DNA of 64,000 bases from Escherichia coli. Its GTDB lineage: Bacteria > Pseudomonadota > Gammaproteobacteria > Enterobacterales > Enterobacteriaceae. Under the pieces are notes generated by a model. That model made no database searches. It was not told the origin of the DNA and saw only the letters and a program-made list of their open reading frames with translations. The stretch lies in the NCBI RefSeq assembly GCF_051903065.1, contig NZ_CP178438.1; one strand, given 5' to 3'. The position numbers were made by a program, and so were the translations under genes. Shown one piece after another: positions 7,340-44,814 of the stretch; the stretch's first letter is position 1; every line of letters starts with the position of its first letter.

Positions 7340-7423
7340 TTATTCAATAAACTGACGGATCAGTTCCAGCAGCGCGATTAGCGCCTTAAGAACGATGAGA
7401 ACTTTATCGAGAAAAGTTTTCAT
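7340..7423 (-). CDS. Candidate type I toxin: 27-aa hydrophobic peptide MKTFLDKVLIVLKALIALLELIRQFIE (DinQ/TisB-like)
   Basis: Not in the ORF track (too short); hand-translated. Strong SD AAGGGAG 6 nt upstream of ATG; single predicted TM helix; an in-frame upstream ATG at 7495 would give 51 aa but lacks an SD. Confidence 0.5.
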   Translation of the reverse strand: MKTFLDKVLIVLKALIALLELIRQFIE

Positions 7424-7648
7424 CCGTTGCTCCCTTAAGGGAGAAAGACAATCACAGCTTACCCTTACGTTGCCTGTAACTATGATTTTCTTCATGTGCT
7501 AGATGAGGACTGCCTCTCTCCAAATTAGAGCACCAGAATCAGCACCACCTGTATCCTGACCAGGACTTAAAAGTACTTTTCCGCACTGCGGTAATCCCTT
7601 GAGGCAGTATCACTACTAGCGTCGGGATTGTATCGCCAACATAGCTGT

Positions 7649-7677
7649 TTGAATATGTAGGCATCCTGACTTATAAT
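7649..7677 (+). promoter_or_regulatory. Near-consensus sigma70 promoter (TTGAAT - 17 bp - TATAAT) for the candidate antitoxin sRNA
   Basis: -35 TTGAAT 7649-7654, -10 TATAAT 7672-7677, predicted TSS about 7684. Confidence 0.5.
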
Positions 7678-7683
7678 TCACTT

Positions 7684-7772
7684 GCTAGATGAGGACTGTT
7701 TCATTTCTGCCCGGAACCACCAAGTCTTGGGCGGAAAAAATAAAAAAACCGACTGTCATGTCGGTTTTTTTA
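7684..7772 (+). ncRNA. Candidate trans-encoded antitoxin sRNA (about 90 nt)
   Basis: Runs from the promoter above to the hairpin plus T-run terminator at 7749-7771; its 5' end (7683-7698 TGCTAGATGAGGACTG) is the exact complement of the toxin transcript region at 7497-7512. Confidence 0.4.
7735..7771. terminator. Bidirectional Rho-independent terminator (A-run, CCGAC-TGTCAT-GTCGG hairpin, T-run)
   Basis: Would terminate selU on the minus strand and the candidate sRNA on the plus strand; a degenerate copy lies at 7267-7293. Confidence 0.6.
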
Positions 7773-7834
7773 TATCTGTATTCTGGTGCAACCATTCTGT
7801 TCTCACGACAATCGCCGTTTCAGAATACCGCCCA

Positions 7835-8944
<1,110 letters not shown>

Positions 8945-14288: not shown

Positions 14289-15167
14289 ATGAAACTGGGA
14301 TTTATTGGCTTAGGCATTATGGGTACACCGATGGCCATTAATCTGGCGCGTGCCGGTCATCAACTGCATGTCACAACCATTGGTCCGGTTGCTGATGAAT
14401 TACTGTCACTGGGTGCCGTCAGTGTTGAAACTGCGCACCAGGTAACGGAAGCATCGGACATCATTTTTATTATGGTGCCGGATACACCACAGGTTGAAGA
14501 AGTTCTGTTCGGTGAAAATGGTTGTACCAAAGCCTCGCTGAAGGGCAAAACCATTGTTGATATGAGCTCCATTTCCCCGATTGAAACTAAACGTTTCGCT
14601 CGTCAGGTGAATGAACTGGGCGGTGATTATCTCGATGCGCCAGTCTCCGGCGGAGAAATCGGCGCGCGTGAAGGGACGTTGTCAATTATGGTTGGCGGTG
14701 ACGAAGCGGTATTTGAACGTGTTAAACCGCTGTTTGAACTGCTCGGTAAAAATATCACCCTTGTGGGCGGTAACGGCGACGGTCAAACCTGCAAAGTGGC
14801 AAATCAGATTATCGTAGCGCTCAATATTGAAGCGGTCTCTGAAGCTCTGCTGTTTGCTTCAAAAGCCGGTGCAGACCCGGTACGTGTGCGCCAGGCGCTG
14901 ATGGGCGGCTTTGCTTCCTCACGTATTCTGGAAGTTCACGGTGAGCGCATGATTAAACGCACCTTTAATCCAGGTTTCAAAATTGCGCTGCACCAGAAAG
15001 ATCTCAACCTGGCACTGCAAAGTGCGAAGACACTGGCGCTGAACCTGCCAAACACCGCGACCTGCCAGGAGTTATTTAATACCTGTGCGGCAAACGGTGG
15101 CAGCCAGTTGGATCACTCTGCGTTAGTGCAGGCGCTGGAATTAATGGCGAATCATAAACTGGCCTGA
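14289..15167 (+). CDS. glxR: Tartronate semialdehyde reductase
   Basis: 292-aa ORF; N-terminal NAD-binding GxGxxG (GLGIMG). Confidence 0.9.
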   Translation: MKLGFIGLGIMGTPMAINLARAGHQLHVTTIGPVADELLSLGAVSVETAHQVTEASDIIFIMVPDTPQVEEVLFGENGCTKASLKGKTIVDMSSISPIETKRFARQVNELGGDYLDAPVSGGEIGAREGTLSIMVGGDEAVFERVKPLFELLGKNITLVGGNGDGQTCKVANQIIVALNIEAVSEALLFASKAGADPVRVRQALMGGFASSRILEVHGERMIKRTFNPGFKIALHQKDLNLALQSAKTLALNLPNTATCQELFNTCAANGGSQLDHSALVQALELMANHKLA

Positions 15168-15335
15168 TACCCGCAATAAAAATGGCCGATATCAGAATAT
15201 GAATCGGCCAGCAATATTAAAAAAGAAAGCAGCCAAAGATGTTGCTTCAGTATTAAAAATAATATTTTTATTTTATTTGTTCCTCATAGCTAGATTAAAA
15301 CAACGTTATTCGATACGTGAAATTAAGAGGGATTT

Positions 15336-16790
15336 ATGGAACATCAGAGAAAACTATTCCAGCAACGCGGCTATAGCGAAGATCTATTGCCGAAAACGCA
15401 AAGCCAGCGGACCTGGAAAACATTTAACTATTTTACCTTATGGATGGGTTCGGTTCATAACGTTCCCAATTATGTGATGGTCGGCGGCTTTTTTATTCTC
15501 GGCTTGTCTACCTTTAGTATTATGCTGGCAATTATCCTCAGCGCCTTTTTCATTGCCGCGGTAATGGTATTAAACGGTGCTGCGGGCAGTAAATACGGCG
15601 TACCGTTTGCCATGATCCTGCGTGCTTCTTACGGCGTACGTGGCGCACTGTTTCCCGGATTATTAAGAGGCGGTATTGCTGCCATTATGTGGTTTGGCCT
15701 GCAATGTTACGCAGGGTCACAGGCCTGCTTGATTCTGATTGGCAAAATCTGGCCGGGATTTTTGACTCTCGGTGGTGATTTCACTCTGTTAGGCCTTTCT
15801 CTACCGGGCTTAATTACTTTCTTACTCTTCTGGCTGGTCAACGTTGGTATAGGTTTTGGCGGTGGCAAAGTTTTAAATAAATTCACTGCCATTCTTAACC
15901 CGTGCATCTATATCGTTTTCGGCGGTATGGCGATTTGGGCGATTTCGCTGGTCGGGCTCGGTCCAATCTTTGACTACATTCCGAGCGGTATTCAGAAAGC
16001 AGAAAACAGTGGATTCTTGTTCCTGGTGGTGATTAACGCGGTAGTTGCGGTCTGGGCGGCACCGGCGGTGAGCGCATCCGACTTTACGCAAAACGCCCAC
16101 TCGTTTCGTGAGCAAGCGCTGGGGCAAACGCTGGGTTTAGTTGTGGCCTATATTCTGTTTGCGGTCGCGGGGGTATGTATTATTGCCGGAGCCAGTATTC
16201 ATTACGGCGCTGATACCTGGAACGTGCTGGATATTGTTCAGCGTTGGGACAGCCTGTTTGCCTCGTTCTTTGCGGTACTGGTTATTCTGATGACGACCAT
16301 TTCCACTAACGCCACTGGTAATATTATTCCGGCTGGTTATCAGATTGCTGCCATTGCACCGACAAAACTGACCTATAAAAACGGCGTACTGATTGCCAGT
16401 ATTATCAGCCTGCTGATCTGCCCGTGGAAATTAATGGAAAATCAGGACAGTATTTATCTGTTCCTCGATATTATCGGCGGAATGCTTGGTCCGGTAATTG
16501 GTGTCATGATGGCGCATTATTTTGTGGTGATGCGTGGGCAAATTAATCTTGATGAACTGTACACCGCACCTGGCGATTATAAATATTACGATAACGGTTT
16601 TAACCTCACCGCGTTTTCAGTAACTCTGGTGGCCGTTATTTTATCTCTTGGCGGTAAGTTTATTCCCTTTATGGAACCGTTATCGCGTGTCTCATGGTTT
16701 GTCGGCGTCATCGTCGCCTTTGCGGCCTACGCCTTATTAAAGAAACGTACAACAGCAGAAAAAACAGGAGAGCAAAAAACCATAGGTTAA
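15336..16790 (+). CDS. ybbW: Allantoin permease (NCS1 family)
   Basis: 484-aa polytopic membrane ORF at the conserved position. Confidence 0.85.
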   Translation: MEHQRKLFQQRGYSEDLLPKTQSQRTWKTFNYFTLWMGSVHNVPNYVMVGGFFILGLSTFSIMLAIILSAFFIAAVMVLNGAAGSKYGVPFAMILRASYGVRGALFPGLLRGGIAAIMWFGLQCYAGSQACLILIGKIWPGFLTLGGDFTLLGLSLPGLITFLLFWLVNVGIGFGGGKVLNKFTAILNPCIYIVFGGMAIWAISLVGLGPIFDYIPSGIQKAENSGFLFLVVINAVVAVWAAPAVSASDFTQNAHSFREQALGQTLGLVVAYILFAVAGVCIIAGASIHYGADTWNVLDIVQRWDSLFASFFAVLVILMTTISTNATGNIIPAGYQIAAIAPTKLTYKNGVLIASIISLLICPWKLMENQDSIYLFLDIIGGMLGPVIGVMMAHYFVVMRGQINLDELYTAPGDYKYYDNGFNLTAFSVTLVAVILSLGGKFIPFMEPLSRVSWFVGVIVAFAAYALLKKRTTAEKTGEQKTIG

Positions 16791-16849
16791 TTAATCCCGA
16801 TATTGAACATTGAGTTAAAAAACAATCTGTATTTTACAAGGAGTTTGTT

Positions 16850-18211
16850 ATGTCTTTTGATTTAATCATTAAAAACGGCACCGTTATTTTAGAAAACGAA
16901 GCTCGCGTTGTAGATATCGCCGTTAAAGGCGGGAAAATTGCTGCTATCGGTCAGGATCTGGGCGATGCAAAAGAAGTGATGGATGCGTCTGGTCTGGTGG
17001 TTTCGCCGGGCATGGTTGATGCGCACACCCATATTTCTGAACCGGGTCGTAGCCACTGGGAAGGTTATGAAACCGGTACTCGCGCAGCGGCAAAAGGTGG
17101 TATCACCACCATGATCGAAATGCCGCTCAACCAGCTGCCTGCAACGGTTGACCGCGCTTCAATTGAACTGAAGTTCGATGCCGCTAAAGGCAAGCTGACT
17201 ATCGATGCGGCACAACTCGGTGGCCTGGTGTCTTACAACATCGACCGTCTACATGAGCTGGATGAAGTAGGCGTTGTCGGTTTCAAATGCTTCGTCGCAA
17301 CCTGTGGTGACCGTGGTATCGACAACGACTTCCGTGACGTCAATGACTGGCAGTTCTTCAAAGGCGCGCAGAAGCTGGGCGAACTGGGTCAGCCGGTGCT
17401 GGTGCACTGCGAAAACGCGCTGATCTGTGACGAACTGGGCGAAGAAGCGAAGCGTGAAGGTCGCGTAACTGCCCATGACTATGTGGCTTCGCGTCCGGTA
17501 TTTACCGAAGTGGAAGCGATTCGCCGCGTACTGTATCTGGCGAAAGTCGCTGGTTGCCGTCTGCACGTTTGCCACATCAGCAGCCCGGAAGGCGTTGAGG
17601 AAGTGACTCGTGCGCGTCAGGAAGGCCAGGACGTTACCTGTGAATCCTGCCCGCATTACTTTGTGCTGGATACCGATCAGTTCGAAGAAATCGGTACTCT
17701 GGCGAAGTGTTCACCGCCGATCCGCGATCTGGAAAACCAGAAAGGCATGTGGGAAAAACTGTTTAACGGTGAAATCGACTGCCTGGTTTCCGACCACTCT
17801 CCATGCCCGCCGGAAATGAAAGCGGGCAACATCATGAAAGCGTGGGGCGGTATCGCCGGTCTGCAAAGCTGCATGGACGTGATGTTCGATGAAGCGGTAC
17901 AGAAACGCGGTATGTCTCTGCCGATGTTCGGCAAATTAATGGCCACCAATGCGGCGGATATTTTTGGTCTGAAACAAAAAGGCCGTATCGCCCCAGGAAA
18001 AGATGCCGACTTTGTCTTCATTCAGCCGAATAGCAGCTATGTTCTTACCAATGACGATCTGGAATATCGCCACAAAGTCAGCCCGTATGTTGGCCGTACC
18101 ATTGGCGCGCGTATCACAAAAACCATCTTACGTGGTGATGTGATTTACGACATCGAACAGGGCTTCCCTGTTGCGCCAAAAGGTCAATTTATCCTTAAAC
18201 ATCAGCAGTAA
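16850..18211 (+). CDS. allB: Allantoinase (cyclic amidohydrolase)
   Basis: 453-aa ORF with metal-binding DAHTH motif. Confidence 0.9.
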
Positions 18212-18261
18212 TCTGGCCCCTGCAATGCCCGTCCTTGCGGCGGGCATTCTCCGGTTAAGGT

Positions 18262-19569
18262 GTGTTTATGTTCAATTTTGCAGTGAGCCGCGAAAGCCTG
18301 TTATCAGGATTTCAGTGGTTTTTCTTTATTTTTTGCAACACGGTTGTGGTTCCTCCTACGCTACTTTCTGCTTTTCAGTTGCCGCAAAGTAGCCTGCTTA
18401 CACTCACGCAATATGCTTTTCTTGCTACCGCGCTGGCCTGCTTCGCTCAGGCGTTCTGCGGTCATCGTCGCGCTATTATGGAAGGGCCGGGTGGCCTGTG
18501 GTGGGGAACCATCCTTACTATCACCCTTGGCGAAGCATCGCGCGGGACACCGATCAACGATATCGCCACCAGCCTGGCGGTGGGGATTGCGCTCTCTGGC
18601 GTGCTGACGATGTTGATTGGTTTTAGCGGATTAGGTCATCGCCTGGCACGGTTATTTACGCCGTCGGTGATGGTCTTGTTTATGTTGATGCTGGGCGCGC
18701 AGCTGACCACTATCTTTTTCAAAGGTATGCTCGGGCTGCCGTTTGGCATAGCCGACCCGAATTTTAAAATTCAGTTACCGCCGTTCGCGCTCTCGGTGGC
18801 GGTGATGTGCCTGGTACTGGCGATGATTATCTTCCTGCCGCAACGTTTTGCCCGTTACGGCCTGCTGGTCGGCACGATAACAGGCTGGTTGTTGTGGTAC
18901 TTTTGCTTTCCTTCTTCGCATTCGCTCTCCGGTGAGTTGCACTGGCAGTGGTTCCCGCTAGGCAGCAGCGGTACGTTGTCGCCCGGAATTATTCTGACGG
19001 CGGTGATTACCGGTCTGGTAAATATCAGCAATACCTACGGTGCGATTCGGGGCACGGATGTTTTTTATCCGCAGCAGGGCGCGGGGAATACGCGTTATCG
19101 TCGTAGCTTTGTGGCGACCGGATTTATGACACTGATAACCGTGCCGCTGGCAGTAATTCCATTTTCACCGTTTGTTTCATCCATTGGTTTATTAACCCAG
19201 ACTGGCGATTACACGCGGCGTTCGTTTATTTATGGCAGCGTTATTTGCCTGCTGGTGGCGCTGGTTCCGGCACTCACGCGACTGTTTTGCAGTATCCCTT
19301 TACCCGTGAGTAGTGCGGTCATGCTGGTTTCTTATCTGCCTTTACTCTTTTCCGCGCTGGTGTTTAGCCAGCAAATAACGTTTACCGCTCGCAATATTTA
19401 TCGACTCGCATTGCCGTTATTTGTCGGCATATTTTTAATGGCATTACCGCCTGTGTATCTGCAAGACCTTCCATTAACGCTTCGTCCTCTGCTCAGTAAC
19501 GGCTTATTGGTCGGGATTTTACTGGCTGTTCTTATGGATAACCTTATTCCGTGGGAACGCATCGAATAA
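18262..19569 (+). CDS. ybbY: Putative purine/uracil-type permease YbbY
   Basis: 435-aa polytopic membrane ORF; true start may be a few codons in. Confidence 0.8.
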   Translation: MFMFNFAVSRESLLSGFQWFFFIFCNTVVVPPTLLSAFQLPQSSLLTLTQYAFLATALACFAQAFCGHRRAIMEGPGGLWWGTILTITLGEASRGTPINDIATSLAVGIALSGVLTMLIGFSGLGHRLARLFTPSVMVLFMLMLGAQLTTIFFKGMLGLPFGIADPNFKIQLPPFALSVAVMCLVLAMIIFLPQRFARYGLLVGTITGWLLWYFCFPSSHSLSGELHWQWFPLGSSGTLSPGIILTAVITGLVNISNTYGAIRGTDVFYPQQGAGNTRYRRSFVATGFMTLITVPLAVIPFSPFVSSIGLLTQTGDYTRRSFIYGSVICLLVALVPALTRLFCSIPLPVSSAVMLVSYLPLLFSALVFSQQITFTARNIYRLALPLFVGIFLMALPPVYLQDLPLTLRPLLSNGLLVGILLAVLMDNLIPWERIE

Positions 19570-19590
19570 TTTGTTGAAAAAGGATTGATA

Positions 19591-20736
19591 ATGAAGATTG
19601 TCATTGCGCCAGACTCTTTTAAAGAGAGCTTAAGTGCAGAAAAATGTTGTCAGGCAATTAAAGCCGGGTTTTCGACCCTCTTTCCCGATGCGAACTATAT
19701 CTGTTTGCCGATAGCGGATGGCGGCGAAGGGACGGTGGATGCGATGGTCGCCGCGACGGGCGGCAACATCGTGACGCTTGAAGTCTGCGGGCCGATGGGC
19801 GAAAAAGTGAATGCTTTTTATGGCCTTACCGGCGACGGGAAAACGGCGGTGATTGAGATGGCGGCAGCAAGTGGCCTGATGCTGGTCGCGCCTGAAAAGC
19901 GTAATCCGTTGCTGGCCTCCAGTTTTGGTACGGGGGAGTTAATTCGTCATGCGCTGGATAACGGCATTCGCCATATTATTCTCGGCATTGGCGGCAGTGC
20001 GACGGTCGACGGCGGTATGGGCATGGCGCAGGCGCTCGGTGTGCGTTTCCTTGATGCCGACGGTCAGGTGCTGGTGGCTAACGGCGGCAATTTAGCGCGC
20101 GTGGCAAGCATTGAGATGGATGAATGCGATCCGCGTCTGGCGAACTGCCATATTGAAGTAGCATGTGACGTTGATAACCCGCTGGTAGGGGCACGCGGCG
20201 CGGCGGCGGTGTTTGGCCCGCAAAAAGGGGCAACGCCGGAAATGGTCGAAGAGCTGGAACAGGGGCTGCAAAATTACGCCCGTGTTTTACAACAGCAAAC
20301 TGAAATCAACGTCTGCCAGATGGCGGGCGGCGGCGCTGCAGGCGGTATGGGTATTGCGGCGGCGGTATTTCTCAATGCGGATATTAAACCGGGTATTGAG
20401 ATTGTGTTGAATGCGGTCAATCTTGCGCAGGCAGTGCAGGGCGCAGCACTGGTGATCACCGGGGAAGGGCGCATCGACTCGCAAACGGCAGGCGGTAAAG
20501 CGCCGTTGGGCGTTGCGTCGGTGGCGAAGCAGTTTAATGTACCGGTGATTGGGATTGCTGGCGTATTGGGTGATGGCGTGGAAGTGGTGCACCAGTACGG
20601 CATTGACGCGGTATTCAGCATTTTGCCACGTCTGGCACCTTTAGCCGAAGTGCTCGCCAGCGGTGAAACCAATCTCTTCAACAGCGCGCGAAATATTGCT
20701 TGCGCCATTAAAATAGGTCAGGGAATTAAAAACTGA
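19591..20736 (+). CDS. glxK: Glycerate kinase II
   Basis: Start at [11 protein letters not shown] gives 381 aa; glycerate kinase fold. Confidence 0.9.
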
Positions 20737-20904
20737 CTCTTGCCTTTAAAGCGGATGCTATTTATTTCGTATAAGTGCGCAGTGCTCATGCCGGATGCTG
20801 CATGAGCACTATATCCTTCCTGAAAATCGCGCAAATTCTATATATTGCAGAGATCATGTAGGCCTGATAAGCGAAGCGCATCAGGCAATGTTACAAAAAA
20901 AGCC

Positions 20905-20935
20905 ACGGTATAAACCGTGGCAAAATCCAACATAG
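20905..20935 (-). terminator. Rho-independent terminator downstream of allE
   Basis: On the minus strand GCCACGG-TTTATA-CCGTGGC followed by TTTTTTT. Confidence 0.6.
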
Positions 20936-21408
20936 CTAAAAATAATCAGGCGAGTGGTATGACTTAAATCTCTACGTCGCGGTTGCAATCTTTCGAGTAA
21001 ATATAGCTGAACGCTTCACCACGCCCTACGCCATAACCAGCCTGTAAAGAATAAGCGCCCATAAAGATGTAATCGCCTTTTTTCACCGGGATCCAGTTAT
21101 TGTCGAGGTTATAAACCCCCTGACCGGAAAGAATATAGGCACCGTGTTCCTGAACGTGTGTTTCGATATAACCATGGCTGGCACCTGGTGCAAAAGAGAG
21201 GATATGCATGTTCATATCAAAACCTAACTCTTTGGGCAGAAAATCCAGCAGGATCACATCATCCATACCTTCATAGTGAATGCGTTCCAGTTCGCTGGCA
21301 TTGCCAGAAACCAGCCACGGTGCATGGCCTTCTACCAGAACATAGCGGCGCTTGGTGATGCTGCCAACTTACTGATTTAGTGTATGATGGTGTTTTTGAG
21401 GTGCTCCA

Positions 21409-21684
21409 GTGGCTTCTGTTTCTATCAGCTGTCCCTCCTGTTCAGCTACTGACGGGGTGGTGCGTAACGGCAAAAGCACCGCCGGACATCAGCGCTATCT
21501 CTGCTCTCACTGCCGTAAAACATGGCAACTGCAGTTCACTTACACCGCTTCTCAACCCGGTACGCACCAGAAAATCATTGATATGGCCATGAATGGCGTT
21601 GGATGCCGGGCAACAGCCCGCATTATGGGCGTTGGCCTCAACACGATTTTACGTCACTTAAAAAACTCAGGCCGCAGTCGGTAA
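21409..21684 (+). CDS. insA: IS1 InsA
   Basis: 91-aa ORF with zinc-finger [14 protein letters not shown]...CSHC. Confidence 0.95.
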
Positions 21685-22106
21685 CCTCGCGCATACAGCC
21701 GGGCAGTGACGTCATCGTCTGCGCGGAAATGGACGAACAGTGGGGCTATGTCGGGGCTAAATCGCGCCAGCGCTGGCTGTTTTACGCGTATGACAGGCTC
21801 CGGAAGACGGTTGTTGCGCACGTATTCGGTGAACGCACTATGGCGACGCTGGGGCGTCTTATGAGCCTGCTGTCACCCTTTGACGTGGTGATATGGATGA
21901 CGGATGGCTGGCCGCTGTATGAATCCCGCCTGAAGGGAAAGCTGCACGTAATCAGCAAGCGATATACGCAGCGAATTGAGCGGCATAACCTGAATCTGAG
22001 GCAGCACCTGGCACGGCTGGGACGGAAGTCGCTGTCGTTCTCAAAATCGGTGGAGCTGCATGACAAAGTCATCGGGCATTATCTGAACATAAAACACTAT
22101 CAATAA
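21603..22106 (+). CDS. insB: IS1 InsB' (transposase made as InsAB' by -1 frameshift)
   Basis: 167-aa ORF overlapping insA in the -1 frame. Confidence 0.9.
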
Positions 22107-22536
22107 GTTGGAGTCATTACCGCGGCGCTTATATAAAAAGATTTGGCTGTCTTCGGCCTGGGCGTTAACAAACGTCATTAAGGAGCCTGGCGGGCAATAA
22201 AGATAGCCACCTTCGCTTAAGGCAAATGTTTTGCCTTCGGCTTTGGCAGTGATATTTCCAGAGATCACATACAGGAACGTTTCAATGCCTTCGCCACCGA
22301 AGCCCTGTTGGTTGCCACCGTTTTGATGCAGTGTGACCAGATAATCAACAAAAGAGGCACCCAGCTTTGGCGTGGAGAGGATTGTCGCGTCACAATTTTC
22401 AAAGCCCGGAATAATATTTTTTACCAGACCGTCTGGTGTTAACAGTGCGAAATTACCGTGTTTCACAATCGCACGGTTAGCCAGTAAATCATCGCGGTAA
22501 CCGGTGACGTTATTTAAATATCCCATTTATGACTCC

Positions 22537-23772
22537 TTATTTCTGCCAGGCAAGTTGATAAAGCATGAGTGCCAACGTTTTGACCCCTTCGGCAAGGTCG
22601 GTAATATTGGTGCGTTCCGCCGGGTTATGGCTGATCCCGTTGATGCTGGGGATAAAAATCATGCAGGTTGGTACGCGAGGCGCGAAAATTTGCGCGTCGT
22701 GCCCGGCACCACTGTGCATCACCCGGTAATTCAGTTTTTCACTTTCACACAATTCTGTCAGGGTGGCGACCAGGTCCTTATTCATCGGCACGGGTTCTTC
22801 GTCCATCCATAAATCGATATCAATACCAATGTCCATTTCATCGCAAATCGCCCGCATGTCGTTTTCTAACTGTTGGGTGAAATCACGCAGCACGGCGGCG
22901 TCGGTATGACGACAATCAATGGTGAATGTGGTTTTACCCGGCACCACATTCACCGTATTCGGGCGCGGCTCTACTTTCCCAAAGGTCAGAACCAGCGGAT
23001 CGCCCATCTTTTTCGCTTTTTCGATCGACTGATGGCAAATGCGACTGAAAGCGTAAACCGTATCACGACGATAACCCATCGGCGTGGTGCCTGCATGGTT
23101 TGATTCGCCGTTCAGCGTCACCGTATAGCGACGTTGCCCGACAATTGCATTCACCACGCCAATTGATTGCCCATTACTTTCCAGCACACAGCCCTGTTCG
23201 ATATGCAGTTCGACAAAGGCTTTAATATCCTGACGCGGAGTTAGCGGGGCGTCCGGCAGAGTAAATCCGCAAGCCTTCATCGCATCGACAAAACTATTTC
23301 CTTTGGCATCACAGATATTCCGCACGTCGTCAGGATTCGCCAGCCCAAAGATATTTTTGCTGCCCCAGAAAACATACGGGAAGCGGCTGCCTTCTTCTTC
23401 CGCCATCGCCACCACTTCAACCGTACGTAACGGCGCGCCGTATTGCGTTTTCAACCAGTCAATTGCCAGCCACGCCGCCAGCGCGCCGAATTGCCCGTCG
23501 AGGTTACCGCCGTTAACCACGGTATCGATATGCGAACCGCTCAGAACCACTTCCTGTGGATATTCGGTGCCACTCAGGCGACCGTATAAATTCCCCACTT
23601 CATCGAAACGTGTTTCCAGCCCACTTGCGGCCATTCTTTTTTTAAATTGCTGCTGGGTTTCCAGCCATTCCGGCGAATAAAGTAAACGGGTCATCCCACC
23701 CGTTGGGTCTGCGCCAAAAGAGGAAAGCCAGGGCAGCGTTTCTTCTATGGCTTGACGAAAATGTGTAATCAT
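22537..23772 (-). CDS. allC: Allantoate amidohydrolase (M20 peptidase family)
   Basis: Track ORF to 23790; start at MITHFRQ gives 411 aa. Confidence 0.9.
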   Translation of the reverse strand: MITHFRQAIEETLPWLSSFGADPTGGMTRLLYSPEWLETQQQFKKRMAASGLETRFDEVGNLYGRLSGTEYPQEVVLSGSHIDTVVNGGNLDGQFGALAAWLAIDWLKTQYGAPLRTVEVVAMAEEEGSRFPYVFWGSKNIFGLANPDDVRNICDAKGNSFVDAMKACGFTLPDAPLTPRQDIKAFVELHIEQGCVLESNGQSIGVVNAIVGQRRYTVTLNGESNHAGTTPMGYRRDTVYAFSRICHQSIEKAKKMGDPLVLTFGKVEPRPNTVNVVPGKTTFTIDCRHTDAAVLRDFTQQLENDMRAICDEMDIGIDIDLWMDEEPVPMNKDLVATLTELCESEKLNYRVMHSGAGHDAQIFAPRVPTCMIFIPSINGISHNPAERTNITDLAEGVKTLALMLYQLAWQK

Positions 23773-23793: not shown

Positions 23794-24843
23794 TTATTGC
23801 GCAAAGGGATTTTTCGTTTCGTATGACGTGTTATAAAGCGCGTCGGAAATTAAATACTGGTAAATATCATCAACAATTTCGATGCCTTCGACGGCGGCTT
23901 TGCGTTGTTTAATATCCTGATCCTGTCCGGGATAATAAACCTGATTAAAACCGGGCGCGGGGGTAATGGCATTTAATTCGCGCATGGTCTGGCTAAGATG
24001 TTGACGGAATAATTCGCTGGAGGAGAAAAAGTTCGGGTTAATAACTACATGTAATTGCCCCAAATTACGCCCGGCGTGTAAATCGTCATACATCGAACTC
24101 ACCTGTCGCCCGAACGGTAAGCCGAGTAAGACGCCTGAGAGAACGTCAATCATCATCATCAGGCCATACCCTTTCGGCCCGGCTGCGGGGAGCAGAGCAT
24201 GTACCGCGAACGGATCGGTTGTTGGTGCACCGTTTTTATCGACCGCCCAGGTATCCGGGATAGACATATTACGCGAGCGGGCGTCGAGCACTTTTCCCCA
24301 TGCCTGTACGGTAGTCGCCATATCAAAGGTAAGGATCTCGTCGCCTTCTCCCGGCGCGGCAAAGGCCAGTGGGTTAGTACCGTAGTAAATTTCCGCGCCG
24401 CCAAACGGCACCACCATTGGATCGGACTGGCACATCGAAATGCCAATTAATCCGGCGCGGGCTGCCCGCTGCACAAAATAAGAGATTGCGCCGCTGTGAC
24501 CCATCCGGCTGATACCGACCACCGCAACGCCATTTTGCTGGGCGGTTTTGATGGCATGTTCCATACCCATTTTCGCCGCGACCTGTCCGGCGGCATTGTC
24601 GGCATGTAAAATTGCCGAGCACGGCCCGGTTTCCTCAAGACGAAACTCCGGTTCGCGGTTGGTGCCGCCTTTTGAAATGCGTTCCGCGTAGTATTCCACG
24701 CGCACCGCGCCATGAGAGTGGATCCCTCTGGCATCGGCGTAAACCAATACTTCAGCCACGGTTGCAGCGTGCTCACGTTTTAACCCAGCCTGGCAGAGTT
24801 TATTCTCAATTAGCTGGTGGAGTGTTTCCCGACTGATTTTCAT
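23794..24843 (-). CDS. allD: Ureidoglycolate dehydrogenase
   Basis: 349-aa ORF of the malate/L-lactate dehydrogenase-2 family. Confidence 0.9.
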   Translation of the reverse strand: MKISRETLHQLIENKLCQAGLKREHAATVAEVLVYADARGIHSHGAVRVEYYAERISKGGTNREPEFRLEETGPCSAILHADNAAGQVAAKMGMEHAIKTAQQNGVAVVGISRMGHSGAISYFVQRAARAGLIGISMCQSDPMVVPFGGAEIYYGTNPLAFAAPGEGDEILTFDMATTVQAWGKVLDARSRNMSIPDTWAVDKNGAPTTDPFAVHALLPAAGPKGYGLMMMIDVLSGVLLGLPFGRQVSSMYDDLHAGRNLGQLHVVINPNFFSSSELFRQHLSQTMRELNAITPAPGFNQVYYPGQDQDIKQRKAAVEGIEIVDDIYQYLISDALYNTSYETKNPFAQ

Positions 24844-25298
24844 CTGTCTTCCTTTTTAACGACGGTGTGAAGCATGACTGCAATTAACATACAGGGAAAA
24901 TATCTGGATTATGTGATCCAGACAGGCAAAAAAATATAGTTAGAATTTATTTGATAATCCGCTCGCTTTTAACCTGGTTTTTAAAACAACCACGCTTATT
25001 AAAAAATAACACGTAATAGCATGGCGGTTATTTGAATTCTTTTGTTAATAATCCCTGTGTGATATTCATCACCTTATTTACCCGTTGTCATCGATACCGT
25101 AATCGCCACATTAACACTGCTCGTGCAATTGCCATGGGTGCAATTTTTAAGGAGTTGTTATGATCCACGCCTTTATTAAAAAAGGGTGTTTTCAGGATTC
25201 GGTCAGTTTAATGATTATTTCACGAAAACTCAGCGAATCAGAAAATGTTGATGATGTTTCCGTAATGATGGGTACGCCCGCCAGGTAATGACTCCAAC

Positions 25299-25802
25299 TT
25301 ATTGATAGTGTTTTATGTTCAGATAATGCCCGATGACTTTGTCATGCAGCTCCACCGATTTTGAGAACGACAGCGACTTCCGTCCCAGCCGTGCCAGGTG
25401 CTGCCTCAGATTCAGGTTATGCCGCTCAATTCGCTGCGTATATCGCTTGCTGATTACGTGCAGCTTTCCCTTCAGGCGGGATTCATACAGCGGCCAGCCA
25501 TCCGTCATCCATATCACCACGTCAAAGGGTGACAGCAGGCTCATAAGACGCCCCAGCGTCGCCATAGTGCGTTCACCGAATACGTGCGCAACAACCGTCT
25601 TCCGGAGCCTGTCATACGCGTAAAACAGCCAGCGCTGGCGCGATTTAGCCCCGACATAGCCCCACTGTTCGTCCATTTCCGCGCAGACGATGACGTCACT
25701 GCCCGGCTGTATGCGCGAGGTTACCGACTGCGGCCTGAGTTTTTTAAGTGACGTAAAATCGTGTTGAGGCCAACGCCCATAATGCGGGCTGTTGCCCGGC
25801 AT
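25299..25802 (-). CDS. insB: IS1 InsB'
   Basis: Identical 167-aa protein to copy 1. Confidence 0.9.
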
Positions 25803-25996
25803 CCAACGCCATTCATGGCCATATCAATGATTTTCTGGTGCGTACCGGGTTGAGAAGCGGTGTAAGTGAACTGCAGTTGCCATGTTTTACGGCAGTGAGA
25901 GCAGAGATAGCGCTGATGTCCGGCGGTGCTTTTGCCGTTACGCACCACCCCGTCAGTAGCTGAACAGGAGGGACAGCTGATAGAAACAGAAGCCAC
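25721..25996 (-). CDS. insA: IS1 InsA
   Basis: Identical 91-aa protein to copy 1. Confidence 0.95.
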
Positions 25997-27613
25997 TGGA
26001 GCACCTCAAAAACACCATCATACACTAAATCAGTAAGTTGGCAGCATCACCCGCCCGCCAATAAAGCGTTATTAGATACCACAGGTTTCTGGCATGACGA
26101 TTTTAATAACGCCACGCCGAACGATATTTGCGTGGCAATTCGTAGCGAAGCGGCGGATGCGGGGATCGCGCAGGCGATTATGCAGCAGCTTGAAGAGGCG
26201 CTAAAACAACTGGCGCAGGGGTCAGGCAGCAGCCAGGCGTTGACGCAGGTGCGTCGCTGGGACAGTGCCTGTCAGAAATTACCCGATGTCAATCTGGCGC
26301 TGATTTCAGTGGCTGGCGAGTATGCGGCGGAGCTGGCGAATCAGGCGCTGGATCGCAACCTCAACGTGATGATGTTCTCCGATAACGTCACGCTGGAAGA
26401 TGAAATCCAACTTAAAACCCGCGCGCGGGAAAAAGGCTTGCTGGTGATGGGGCCGGACTGCGGTACGTCGATGATTGCCGGCACGCCGCTGGCTTTTGCT
26501 AACGTGATGCCGGAAGGCAACATTGGCGTCATTGGCGCTTCCGGTACCGGGATTCAGGAGCTGTGTTCGCAGATTGCGCTGGCAGGGGAGGGAATTACTC
26601 ACGCGATTGGCCTTGGCGGCCGCGACCTCAGCCGTGAAGTGGGCGGCATCAGTGCGCTGACGGCGCTGGAGATGCTCAGTGCAGACGAGAAAAGCGAAGT
26701 GCTGGCATTTGTTTCAAAACCACCTGCCGAAGCGGTGCTTCTGAAAATTGTTAATGCCATGAAAGCAACCGGCAAACCGACGGTGGCGCTGTTTTTAGGT
26801 TATACCCCGGCGGTGGCCCGCGACGAGAATGTCTGGTTTGCCTCCTCGCTGGATGAGGCCGCACGCCTGGCTTGCCTGCTTTCACGCGTTACGGCGCGAC
26901 GTAACGCGATAACGCCTGCCAGCAGCGGATTTATTTGCGGTTTGTATACCGGCGGTACGCTGGCTGCCGAAGCGGCGGGATTACTTGCCGGACACCTTGG
27001 CGTGGAAGCCGATGATGCCCATCATCACGGCATGATGCTCGACGCCGATGGTCACCAGATTATTGACCTCGGCGATGATTTCTACACCGTCGGGCGTCCC
27101 CATCCGATGATCGACCCAACCTTACGCAACCAGTTAATTGCCGATCTCGGCGCTAAACCGTCAGTGCGCGTATTGCTACTTGATGTCGTGATTGGCTTCG
27201 GCGCGACCGCCGATCCTGCCGCCTCGCTGGTAAGCGCCTGGCAAAAAGCCTGTGCTGCGCGTTCAGACAATCAACCACTGTATGCCATTGCCACGGTGAC
27301 AGGCACTGAACGTGACCCGCAATGCCGCTCGCAGCAAATCGCCACGCTGGAAGATGCGGGGATTGCGGTCGTGAGTTCGCTACCGGAAGCCACCTTGCTG
27401 GCGGCAGCGTTAATTCATCCGCTCTCGCCTGCCGCACAGCAACACACACCGTCATTACTGGAAAACGTCGCCGTGATTAACATCGGATTACGCAGTTTTG
27501 CGCTGGAGCTACAAAGCGCCAGCAAACCGGTTGTGCATTACCAATGGTCGCCAGTCGCCGGCGGCAATAAAAAACTGGCTCGTTTATTAGAACGTTTGCA
27601 ATAAGGGGTTCCC

Positions 27614-43930: not shown

Positions 43931-44007
43931 GCGCCCTTAGCTCAGTTGGATAGAGCAACGACCTTCTAAGTCGTGGGCCGCAGGTTCGAATCCTGCAGGG
44001 CGCGCCA
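43931..44007 (+). tRNA. argU: tRNA-Arg (anticodon UCU, reads AGA)
   Basis: GCGCCCTTAGCTCAGTTGGATAGAGCAACGACCTTCTAAGTCGTGGGCCGCAGGTTCGAATCCTGCAGGGCGCGCCA; cloverleaf with TCT anticodon and 3' CCA. Confidence 0.95.
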
Positions 44008-44052
44008 TTTCTTCTTCATTTATGCCCGTCTTATCCGTTTCCGCTTTGCCCT

Positions 44053-44814
44053 TCACCACATCACTTTTTGTCGCTGTTTGGCGAGATAATTCAACGGTGT
44101 CAGGCCGTAAAACGCCTTAAAAACAGAGATAAAGTACGACGTGCTGCTATAGCCACATAATTGCGCCACCTGAGTGATATTTTTGTTATCCATCAATAAC
44201 ATCTGTACGGCGTAACGCATACGACACTCTGTGACAATCTGGCTATAGCTGGTATTTTCGTTTTTTAATTTCTTTTTGAGCAGGCTGGGGCTTAAACATA
44301 GCGAACTGGCGACAATTCGCAGATTCCAGTAATGCTGAATATCGCTTTGAATAATGCGGCAGACGCTGTCGCGGACGCTGCTGCGTAAGATATACATCAG
44401 TAGGGCAATAAACCGCGATTGCTCAAGAAAGTTAGACAATACGGTAAAAAGCAATGCGCGTGTCAACTCCGCTTCGCAGGGTTTGCTGGGTTGCTGCTTG
44501 CTGTGGTTGGCGGCTAGCCGGAACACTTCCGGTGTACGGCTATGACAAGCGATAACCGGGGTAGCCAGCCGCGACCAGGGCTTTACACAGGTTAAGTTCT
44601 TATTTAAAAACAACAGATAATCGTTGATGATGTTACGGTTGATGTGGGTGATTAATACGTGATTTAACGTTGAGAGTTCAATGACGTTATTGTTGCACGC
44701 GAAGGCGGCCAGGTAGTTTTTCGGAAGGGTAAACGTAGCATGGTTATTGACGCTTACCTCTACCTCTTTTTCGGTCAGGATCACCACGCAAGGTTCACTG
44801 CTGCTCAATTGCAT
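44053..44814 (-). CDS. envY: AraC-family transcriptional regulator EnvY
   Basis: 253-aa ORF with C-terminal AraC helix-turn-helix. Confidence 0.85.
   Translation of the reverse strand: MQLSSSEPCVVILTEKEVEVSVNNHATFTLPKNYLAAFACNNNVIELSTLNHVLITHINRNIINDYLLFLNKNLTCVKPWSRLATPVIACHSRTPEVFRLAANHSKQQPSKPCEAELTRALLFTVLSNFLEQSRFIALLMYILRSSVRDSVCRIIQSDIQHYWNLRIVASSLCLSPSLLKKKLKNENTSYSQIVTECRMRYAVQMLLMDNKNITQVAQLCGYSSTSYFISVFKAFYGLTPLNYLAKQRQKVMW

Follow-up and report, generated by a model that had tools for sequence, protein, structure and literature searches.

The allantoin cluster and its two IS1 elements

The window, a stretch of 64,000 nucleotides of Escherichia coli DNA, contains the whole ALL cluster in its K-12 order (b0504-b0521), from allS to ybcF/allK. 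Two genes of the cluster, allE and fdrA/allF, are each interrupted by a copy of IS1, while all 15 of the other genes are full length and encode products 97-100% identical to the K-12 proteins (Table 1). When allantoin is used anaerobically, AllE turns (S)-ureidoglycine into (S)-ureidoglycolate, and its gene is the last of the allD operon, allD-allC-allE (PMC12535856). The gene fdrA is the same as allF, the first of allFGHK, an operon that encodes the oxamic transcarbamylase and the carbamate kinase (PMC11326118). Outside the cluster, the window carries a tRNA-Arg(tct) gene at 43931-44007. The gene of a 253-aa AraC-type regulator lies within 46 bp of it, then come ybcH, nfrA, nfrB and cusS (window 43931-44814), and these ORFs leave no space for a prophage or ompT at that tRNA site. 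K-12 carries the DLP12 prophage and ompT there.

Table 1. Features around the interrupted allE and fdrA/allF genes of the window, followed by IS1 insertions in allE of other E. coli genomes
Feature	Position	Strand or orientation	Remark
Terminator-like hairpin and T-run 3' of allE	20902..20921	-	in the spacer common with convergent glxK
allE 3' fragment, codons 133-261 and stop	20964..21353	-	C-terminal cupin
Promoter-like match spanning the left IS1 junction	21339..21367	-	consensus match only
Target-site duplication, left copy, 9 bp, GCGGCGCTT	21345..21353		sequence read and script
IS1 element, IS1A-like, 768 bp	21354..22121	+	transposase genes on + strand, opposite to allE
IRL, left terminal inverted repeat of IS1, GGTGATGCTGCCAACTTACTGAT	21354..21376	+	script
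insA, 91 aa, zinc-finger/HTH part of the transposase	21409..21684	+	ORF list and profiles
insB' frame, 167-aa ORF, catalytic part	21603..22106	+	ORF list and NF033558
IRR, right terminal inverted repeat of IS1, GGTAATGACTCCAACTTATTGAT on the minus strand	22099..22121	-	script
Target-site duplication, right copy, 9 bp, GCGGCGCTT	22122..22130		sequence read and script
allE 5' fragment, codons 1-135	22122..22526	-	N-terminal cupin
allC	22537..23772	-	intact, upstream of allE
allD	23794..24843	-	intact, upstream of allC
fdrA/allF	25160..27604	+	split near codons 39-42 by the second IS1
Second IS1 duplication, left copy, 9 bp, CGCCCGCCA	25275..25283		
Second IS1, 768/768 identical to the first	25284..26051	-	inverted orientation; self-BLAST of the window
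Second IS1 duplication, right copy, 9 bp, CGCCCGCCA	26052..26060		
13P484A, IS1 in allE	21332-21341 (window-equivalent)	same as window	
2017.18.04CC, IS1 in allE	21234-21242 (window-equivalent)	same as window	
M21170, IS1 in allE	21239-21246 (window-equivalent)	same as window	
23CRST050, IS1 in allE	21184-21192 (window-equivalent)	same as window	
YJ4, IS1 in allE	near the 3' end of allE	same as window	
OZ040331, IS1 in allE	21237-21245 (window-equivalent)	opposite to window	
ECSC054, IS1 junction	21222 (window-equivalent)	opposite to window	deletion into glxK
EC5931, IS1 junction	22140 (window-equivalent)	opposite to window	deletion to allW

What kind of element sits in allE? Its length, terminal repeats, reading frames with frameshift motif, profile match and 9-bp duplication are all those of the IS1 family. 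The terminal repeats are imperfect, with 18 of 23 positions identical between the two ends when compared by script. The frames of insA and insB' overlap, and a -1 frameshift at the A6C motif (AAAAAAC, read in the sequence at 21660-21666) gives InsAB'. Against NF033558, the NCBIfam profile of the IS1 transposase with a cut-off of 100 bits, the InsB' part scores 145.6 bits over profile positions 75-199 and InsA scores 91.3 bits over positions 1-81; InsA also matches the Zn-binding domain NF050000 in the profile search. The element shows no structural difference from the IS1A-type IS1 of E. coli and Shigella, with which it shares the 768 bp, the 23-bp imperfect terminal repeats, the insA/insB' A6C -1 frameshift, the 9-bp duplication, the AT-rich surroundings and, in the closest genome, a high copy number. 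Its divergence from the IS1A copies of K-12 is about 1% (98.9% identity).

Target-site duplications of IS1 are 8-10 bp long, and usually 9 bp. The original prediction placed a complete 768-bp IS1 between identical 9-mers and proposed that their identity be re-inspected. The sequence read over 20800-22700 and the script concur on the element, and GCGGCGCTT stands on both sides of it, identical at 9 of 9 positions; two given 9-mers would be identical by chance with a probability of about 4e-6. In the uninterrupted allE of K-12, which represents the empty site, the 9-mer occurs once and is then followed by TATATAAAAAG. As it is single there, the repeat around the element is a true target-site duplication.

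The second IS1 was absent from the original prediction and lies 3.2 kb from the copy in allE. Removing it together with one 9-mer rejoins fdrA into an uninterrupted frame, and the encoded product begins as K-12 FdrA (555 aa) does. Judged by the general behaviour of IS1, this insertion probably silences allG, allH and allK by polarity. Both frames of the allE copy are open and its identical twin nearby has a duplication of its own, which suggests recent activity of the element.

The broken allE frame and the fate of AllE

When the first IS1 and one 9-mer are removed by script, the minus strand shows a single open ORF of 261 codons. Its restored 261-aa product reaches 338 bits over residues 14-260 against TIGR03214, the (S)-ureidoglycine aminohydrolase profile with a curated cut-off of 200 bits, and it matches the structure of E. 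coli YlbA (PDB 1RC6) over residues 1-261 with an E value of 1.7e-177. Compared with K-12 allE, 15 of 786 nucleotides and 3 residues differ. By profile and gene position the gene is a member of the AllE/YlbA family; its frame is no longer intact, and this makes it a pseudogene.

Where does the element cut? The duplicated 9 bp are nucleotides 397-405 of allE, codons 133-135. Pfam assigns residues 56-136 of AllE to Cupin_3 and residues 184-230 to Cupin_2, and the insertion point, after codon 135, is the boundary between the two cupin domains of this bicupin protein. The 5' fragment continues for 26 codons into IS1 as a chimeric ORF of 161 aa (22041-22526). Downstream of IS1 and beyond the duplication lie codons 136-261 (126 codons), in a frame that is closed upstream by a stop codon within the IS1 end; the longest ORF left in this fragment has 100 aa and starts at Met162. 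The proposed split into 135 and 126 codons is thereby confirmed, as is the rejoining of the two pieces into a 261-codon frame once IS1 is taken out. The predicted loss of the enzyme also stands, the frame being broken between the cupin domains, and we infer from the sequence that functional AllE is not to be expected.

Does the insertion reach beyond allE itself? Given the final position of allE in the allD operon, no effect in cis on other genes is expected. The earlier suggestion that the insertion may be polar finds no target, since allE ends its operon and is followed by the hairpin with its T-run and by the convergent glxK. Fusion promoters of IS1 are documented (PMC9330008), and outward promoter activity had been proposed as well. 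The proposal has in its favour a promoter-like match at the left junction, with a -35 box TTGGCA in IRL, a 17-nt spacer and a -10 box TATGTT in allE, but this candidate promoter is aimed only into the dead 3' remnant of allE. The glxK-allE spacer (20770-20891) holds a REP-like palindromic stretch, e.g. GCCTGATAAGCGAAGCGCATCAGGC. Several other genomes (loci L003-L005 and L010) give no alignment to this palindromic stretch, which marks the spacer as variable.

Could AllE function nevertheless survive? The two cupin halves might be made separately and reassemble, or another enzyme or spontaneous chemistry might fully replace AllE, and the insertion would then be phenotypically silent. The promoter-like match across the left junction could serve the 3' half, and the 100-aa ORF from Met162 does cover the C-terminal cupin; that ORF, however, is without residues 136-161. 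As for a replacement of the enzyme, the oxamate branch requires stereospecific (S)-ureidoglycolate, and the second IS1 hits this branch anyway. Ureidoglycine is unstable and decays spontaneously, but the reported products of this decay are glyoxylate, ammonia and urea (PMC4016543). Moreover, a K-12 delta-allE mutant does have a phenotype: its lag is prolonged when it has been starved of nitrogen for 24 h (PMC7417836). Survival of AllE function is, on these grounds, very unlikely, and we keep to the reading that the insertion knocks out allE.

How complete would the metabolic block be? The original prediction had the step from ureidoglycine to ureidoglycolate lost. The loss of the enzyme is upheld, but a complete block is not assured in view of the spontaneous decay. 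Because ureidoglycine decays in this way, loss of AllE may slow the pathway without stopping it, with a possible leak on the glyoxylate side. Two hits fall on the oxamate branch, the predicted absence of AllE and the insertion in allF. In its predicted loss of (S)-ureidoglycine aminohydrolase the window's allele equals the K-12 delta-allE (ylbA) knockout; unlike that knockout, it arose naturally by IS insertion and is accompanied by an IS1 knockout of allF.

A simple transposition and its lineage

The two allE fragments lie on the same strand and are colinear with K-12, in agreement with the simple transposition that had been proposed. This colinearity also excludes an origin of the two flanks at separate places in the genome. 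Does the second element change this picture? A 3.16-kb segment (allE', allC, allD, 'allF) lies between two IS1 copies that are 100% identical and inverted relative to each other, and composite transposons, deletions and inversions are all known products of IS1 (PMC9330008). The pair with the DNA between it could be such a transposon, or the segment could have been inverted by IS1-IS1 recombination. Yet each copy has its own duplication, GCGGCGCTT for one and CGCCCGCCA for the other, the outer flanks of the pair differ, and gene order and orientation are colinear with K-12 across the cluster; an inversion would have exchanged the duplication halves between the two copies. A Tn9-like composite transposon was considered specifically and rejected: the two bracketing IS1 copies are present, but a shared outer duplication and a foreign passenger are absent, the segment between the copies being the native allE'-allC-allD-'allF. 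We regard both a composite transposon and an inversion as highly improbable. The matched duplication of each IS1 and the colinearity of the cluster imply instead that the two elements inserted separately.

Which other genomes carry this insertion? When 5,426 complete E. coli genomes were searched with IS1 and its 200-bp flanks, identical allE/IS1 junctions turned up only in 23CRST027 (NZ_AP045789.1) and 23CRST031 (NZ_AP045800.1), isolates from human faeces in Santo Domingo, Ecuador. Window positions 15154-22563 are 100% identical to 23CRST027, and the IS1 at the same allE site of that genome is likewise 100% identical to the window copy. RefSeq already marks the IS1 transposase and both allE pseudogene fragments in these two genomes; in 23CRST027 the annotation is a joined CDS, 'IS1-like element IS1A family transposase, programmed frameshift'. 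Both isolates share with the window the junctions in allE and the second IS1 in fdrA. What sets them apart is an additional IS903B, about 1.06 kb long, that interrupts the last codons of allC at its 3' end (window-equivalent 22554-22563; in 23CRST027 at 7411-8465 of locus L001, with 23CRST031 as locus L007). Since IS903B is absent from the window, the window shows an earlier state of the lineage. No genome in the complete E. coli collection has both IS1 copies without IS903B; a draft contig, GCA_036912935.1 (locus L008), fits this state. Its 3,377 bp extend exactly from IS1 edge to IS1 edge, with the same chimeric 161-aa ORF and no IS903B. With 37 IS1 places, 23CRST027 lies well above the collection's median of 11 for an E. 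coli genome, which suggests an IS1 expansion in this lineage.

A comparison with B-lineage genomes had been recommended. A B-lineage origin was rejected: among the complete genomes searched, the full junctions are carried only by 23CRST027 and 23CRST031, the closest genomes and both Ecuadorian human faecal isolates, the right junction by itself is shared by LR-29-1, and no B strain is among the insertion carriers. LR-29-1, also from Santo Domingo, has the right IS1/allE junction of the window, while its left side joins hyi, with a deletion that runs from glxR through the 3' part of allE. The IS1 of this genome (3001-3768 of locus L006) is chimeric, with positions 4-396 from another variant and positions 397-768 identical to the window copy. 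The flank differs from the window by five mismatches, all 310-370 bp from the junction. Such a structure would fit IS1-IS1 recombination or an IS1-adjacent deletion, and the right junction may be either inherited or independent.

That an assembler misplaced an IS1 copy is hardly worth entertaining: repeats are a common source of misassembly and IS1 is highly repeated in 23CRST027, but the perfectly duplicated 9 bp occur just once in the empty site, the same junctions stand in two separately assembled complete genomes, 23CRST027 and 23CRST031, and the draft contig carries the chimeric AllE'-IS1 ORF.

A simple IS1 transposition knocking out allE, with an independent second hit in allF, appears to be the best explanation, with a probability of roughly 0.93. 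On this reading an active-looking, IS1A-type IS1 transposed once into codons 133-135 of allE with the usual 9-bp target duplication, and no further rearrangement followed. The site adjoins the AT-rich stretch TATATAAAAAG, which is in line with the known regional preference of IS1. The element cuts the bicupin AllE between its cupin domains, leaving a 5' part that ends 26 codons into IS1 and a 3' part without a start codon before Met162. A second copy of the same IS1 hit fdrA/allF independently, and the strain is predicted to have lost the enzymatic hydrolysis of ureidoglycine and, in anaerobic allantoin use, the oxamate branch that yields ATP. The damage to the ALL cluster is purely IS-driven and, because all other genes of the cluster are still intact, recent.

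Recurrent IS1 insertion in allE and its meaning

Is allE an occasional victim of IS1 or a frequent one? Among the 5,426 complete E. coli genomes, IS1 interrupts this gene of 786 bp at at least nine distinct junctions and in both orientations. The independent insertions fall at window-equivalent positions 21184-21353 and at 22140 (loci L002-L005 and L010-L013). Several lie no more than about 30 bp from the window's site or belong to a second cluster at a distance of about 110 bp; they differ from the window's insertion in their junctions, occur in both orientations and involve IS1 variants that are 91-99% identical. Within allE the sites group into two clusters that adjoin local AT-rich peaks, and this clustering fits the known regional preference of IS1. 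Such a target preference was reportedly described by Zerbib et al. in 1985, a study cited in PMC9330008. The neighbouring spacers have been hit too, the 10-bp allC-allE spacer in CEA106S (locus L014) and the glxK-allE spacer in 2013C-4991 (locus L015). At three loci, ECSC054, EC5931 and LR-29-1, there are IS1-adjacent deletions, which extend into glxK, allW or hyi.

A bias of IS1 in allE toward one orientation was considered and rejected: every hit of the initial search was oriented as in the window, but that search had joined same-strand pieces only, and a query with flipped IS1 found reverse insertions. With chimeric queries, genomes with IS1 near allE numbered 19 in the forward and 9 in the reverse orientation. 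Control queries with the same IS1 set into allB or ylbE, in one orientation, gave 7 genomes for allB and 0 for ylbE against the 19 for allE, a crude comparison that counts genomes and not events and is not proof of enrichment. In the window's own lineage the hits are successive: allE and allF, then IS903B in allC, and possibly the deletion from hyi to allE in LR-29-1. Could selection be at work? The gene allE, with the rest of the ALL cluster, might be a recurrent IS1 target because some gut E. coli lineages benefit from losing allantoin catabolism, over and above target preference; we consider this unlikely. No paper dealing with IS1 together with allE or ylbA was found in the literature.

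What does the insertion mean for the strain and its relatives? As a textbook IS1 insertion, it has little significance beyond strain-level annotation. Beyond what had been predicted, the analysis adds the second IS1 in allF, the lack of a target for polarity, the lineage, and the repeated insertion of IS1 in allE. We predict the strain to be a poor user or a non-user of allantoin as an anaerobic nitrogen source, and its recovery from long nitrogen starvation may be slower. Flanked by identical, inverted IS1 copies, the allC-allD segment is liable to be inverted, deleted or mobilised, and relatives of the strain already show more IS-driven decay of the ALL cluster. The repeated IS1 hits in allE of unrelated E. 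coli could serve as a small case study of insertion hotspot versus selection.
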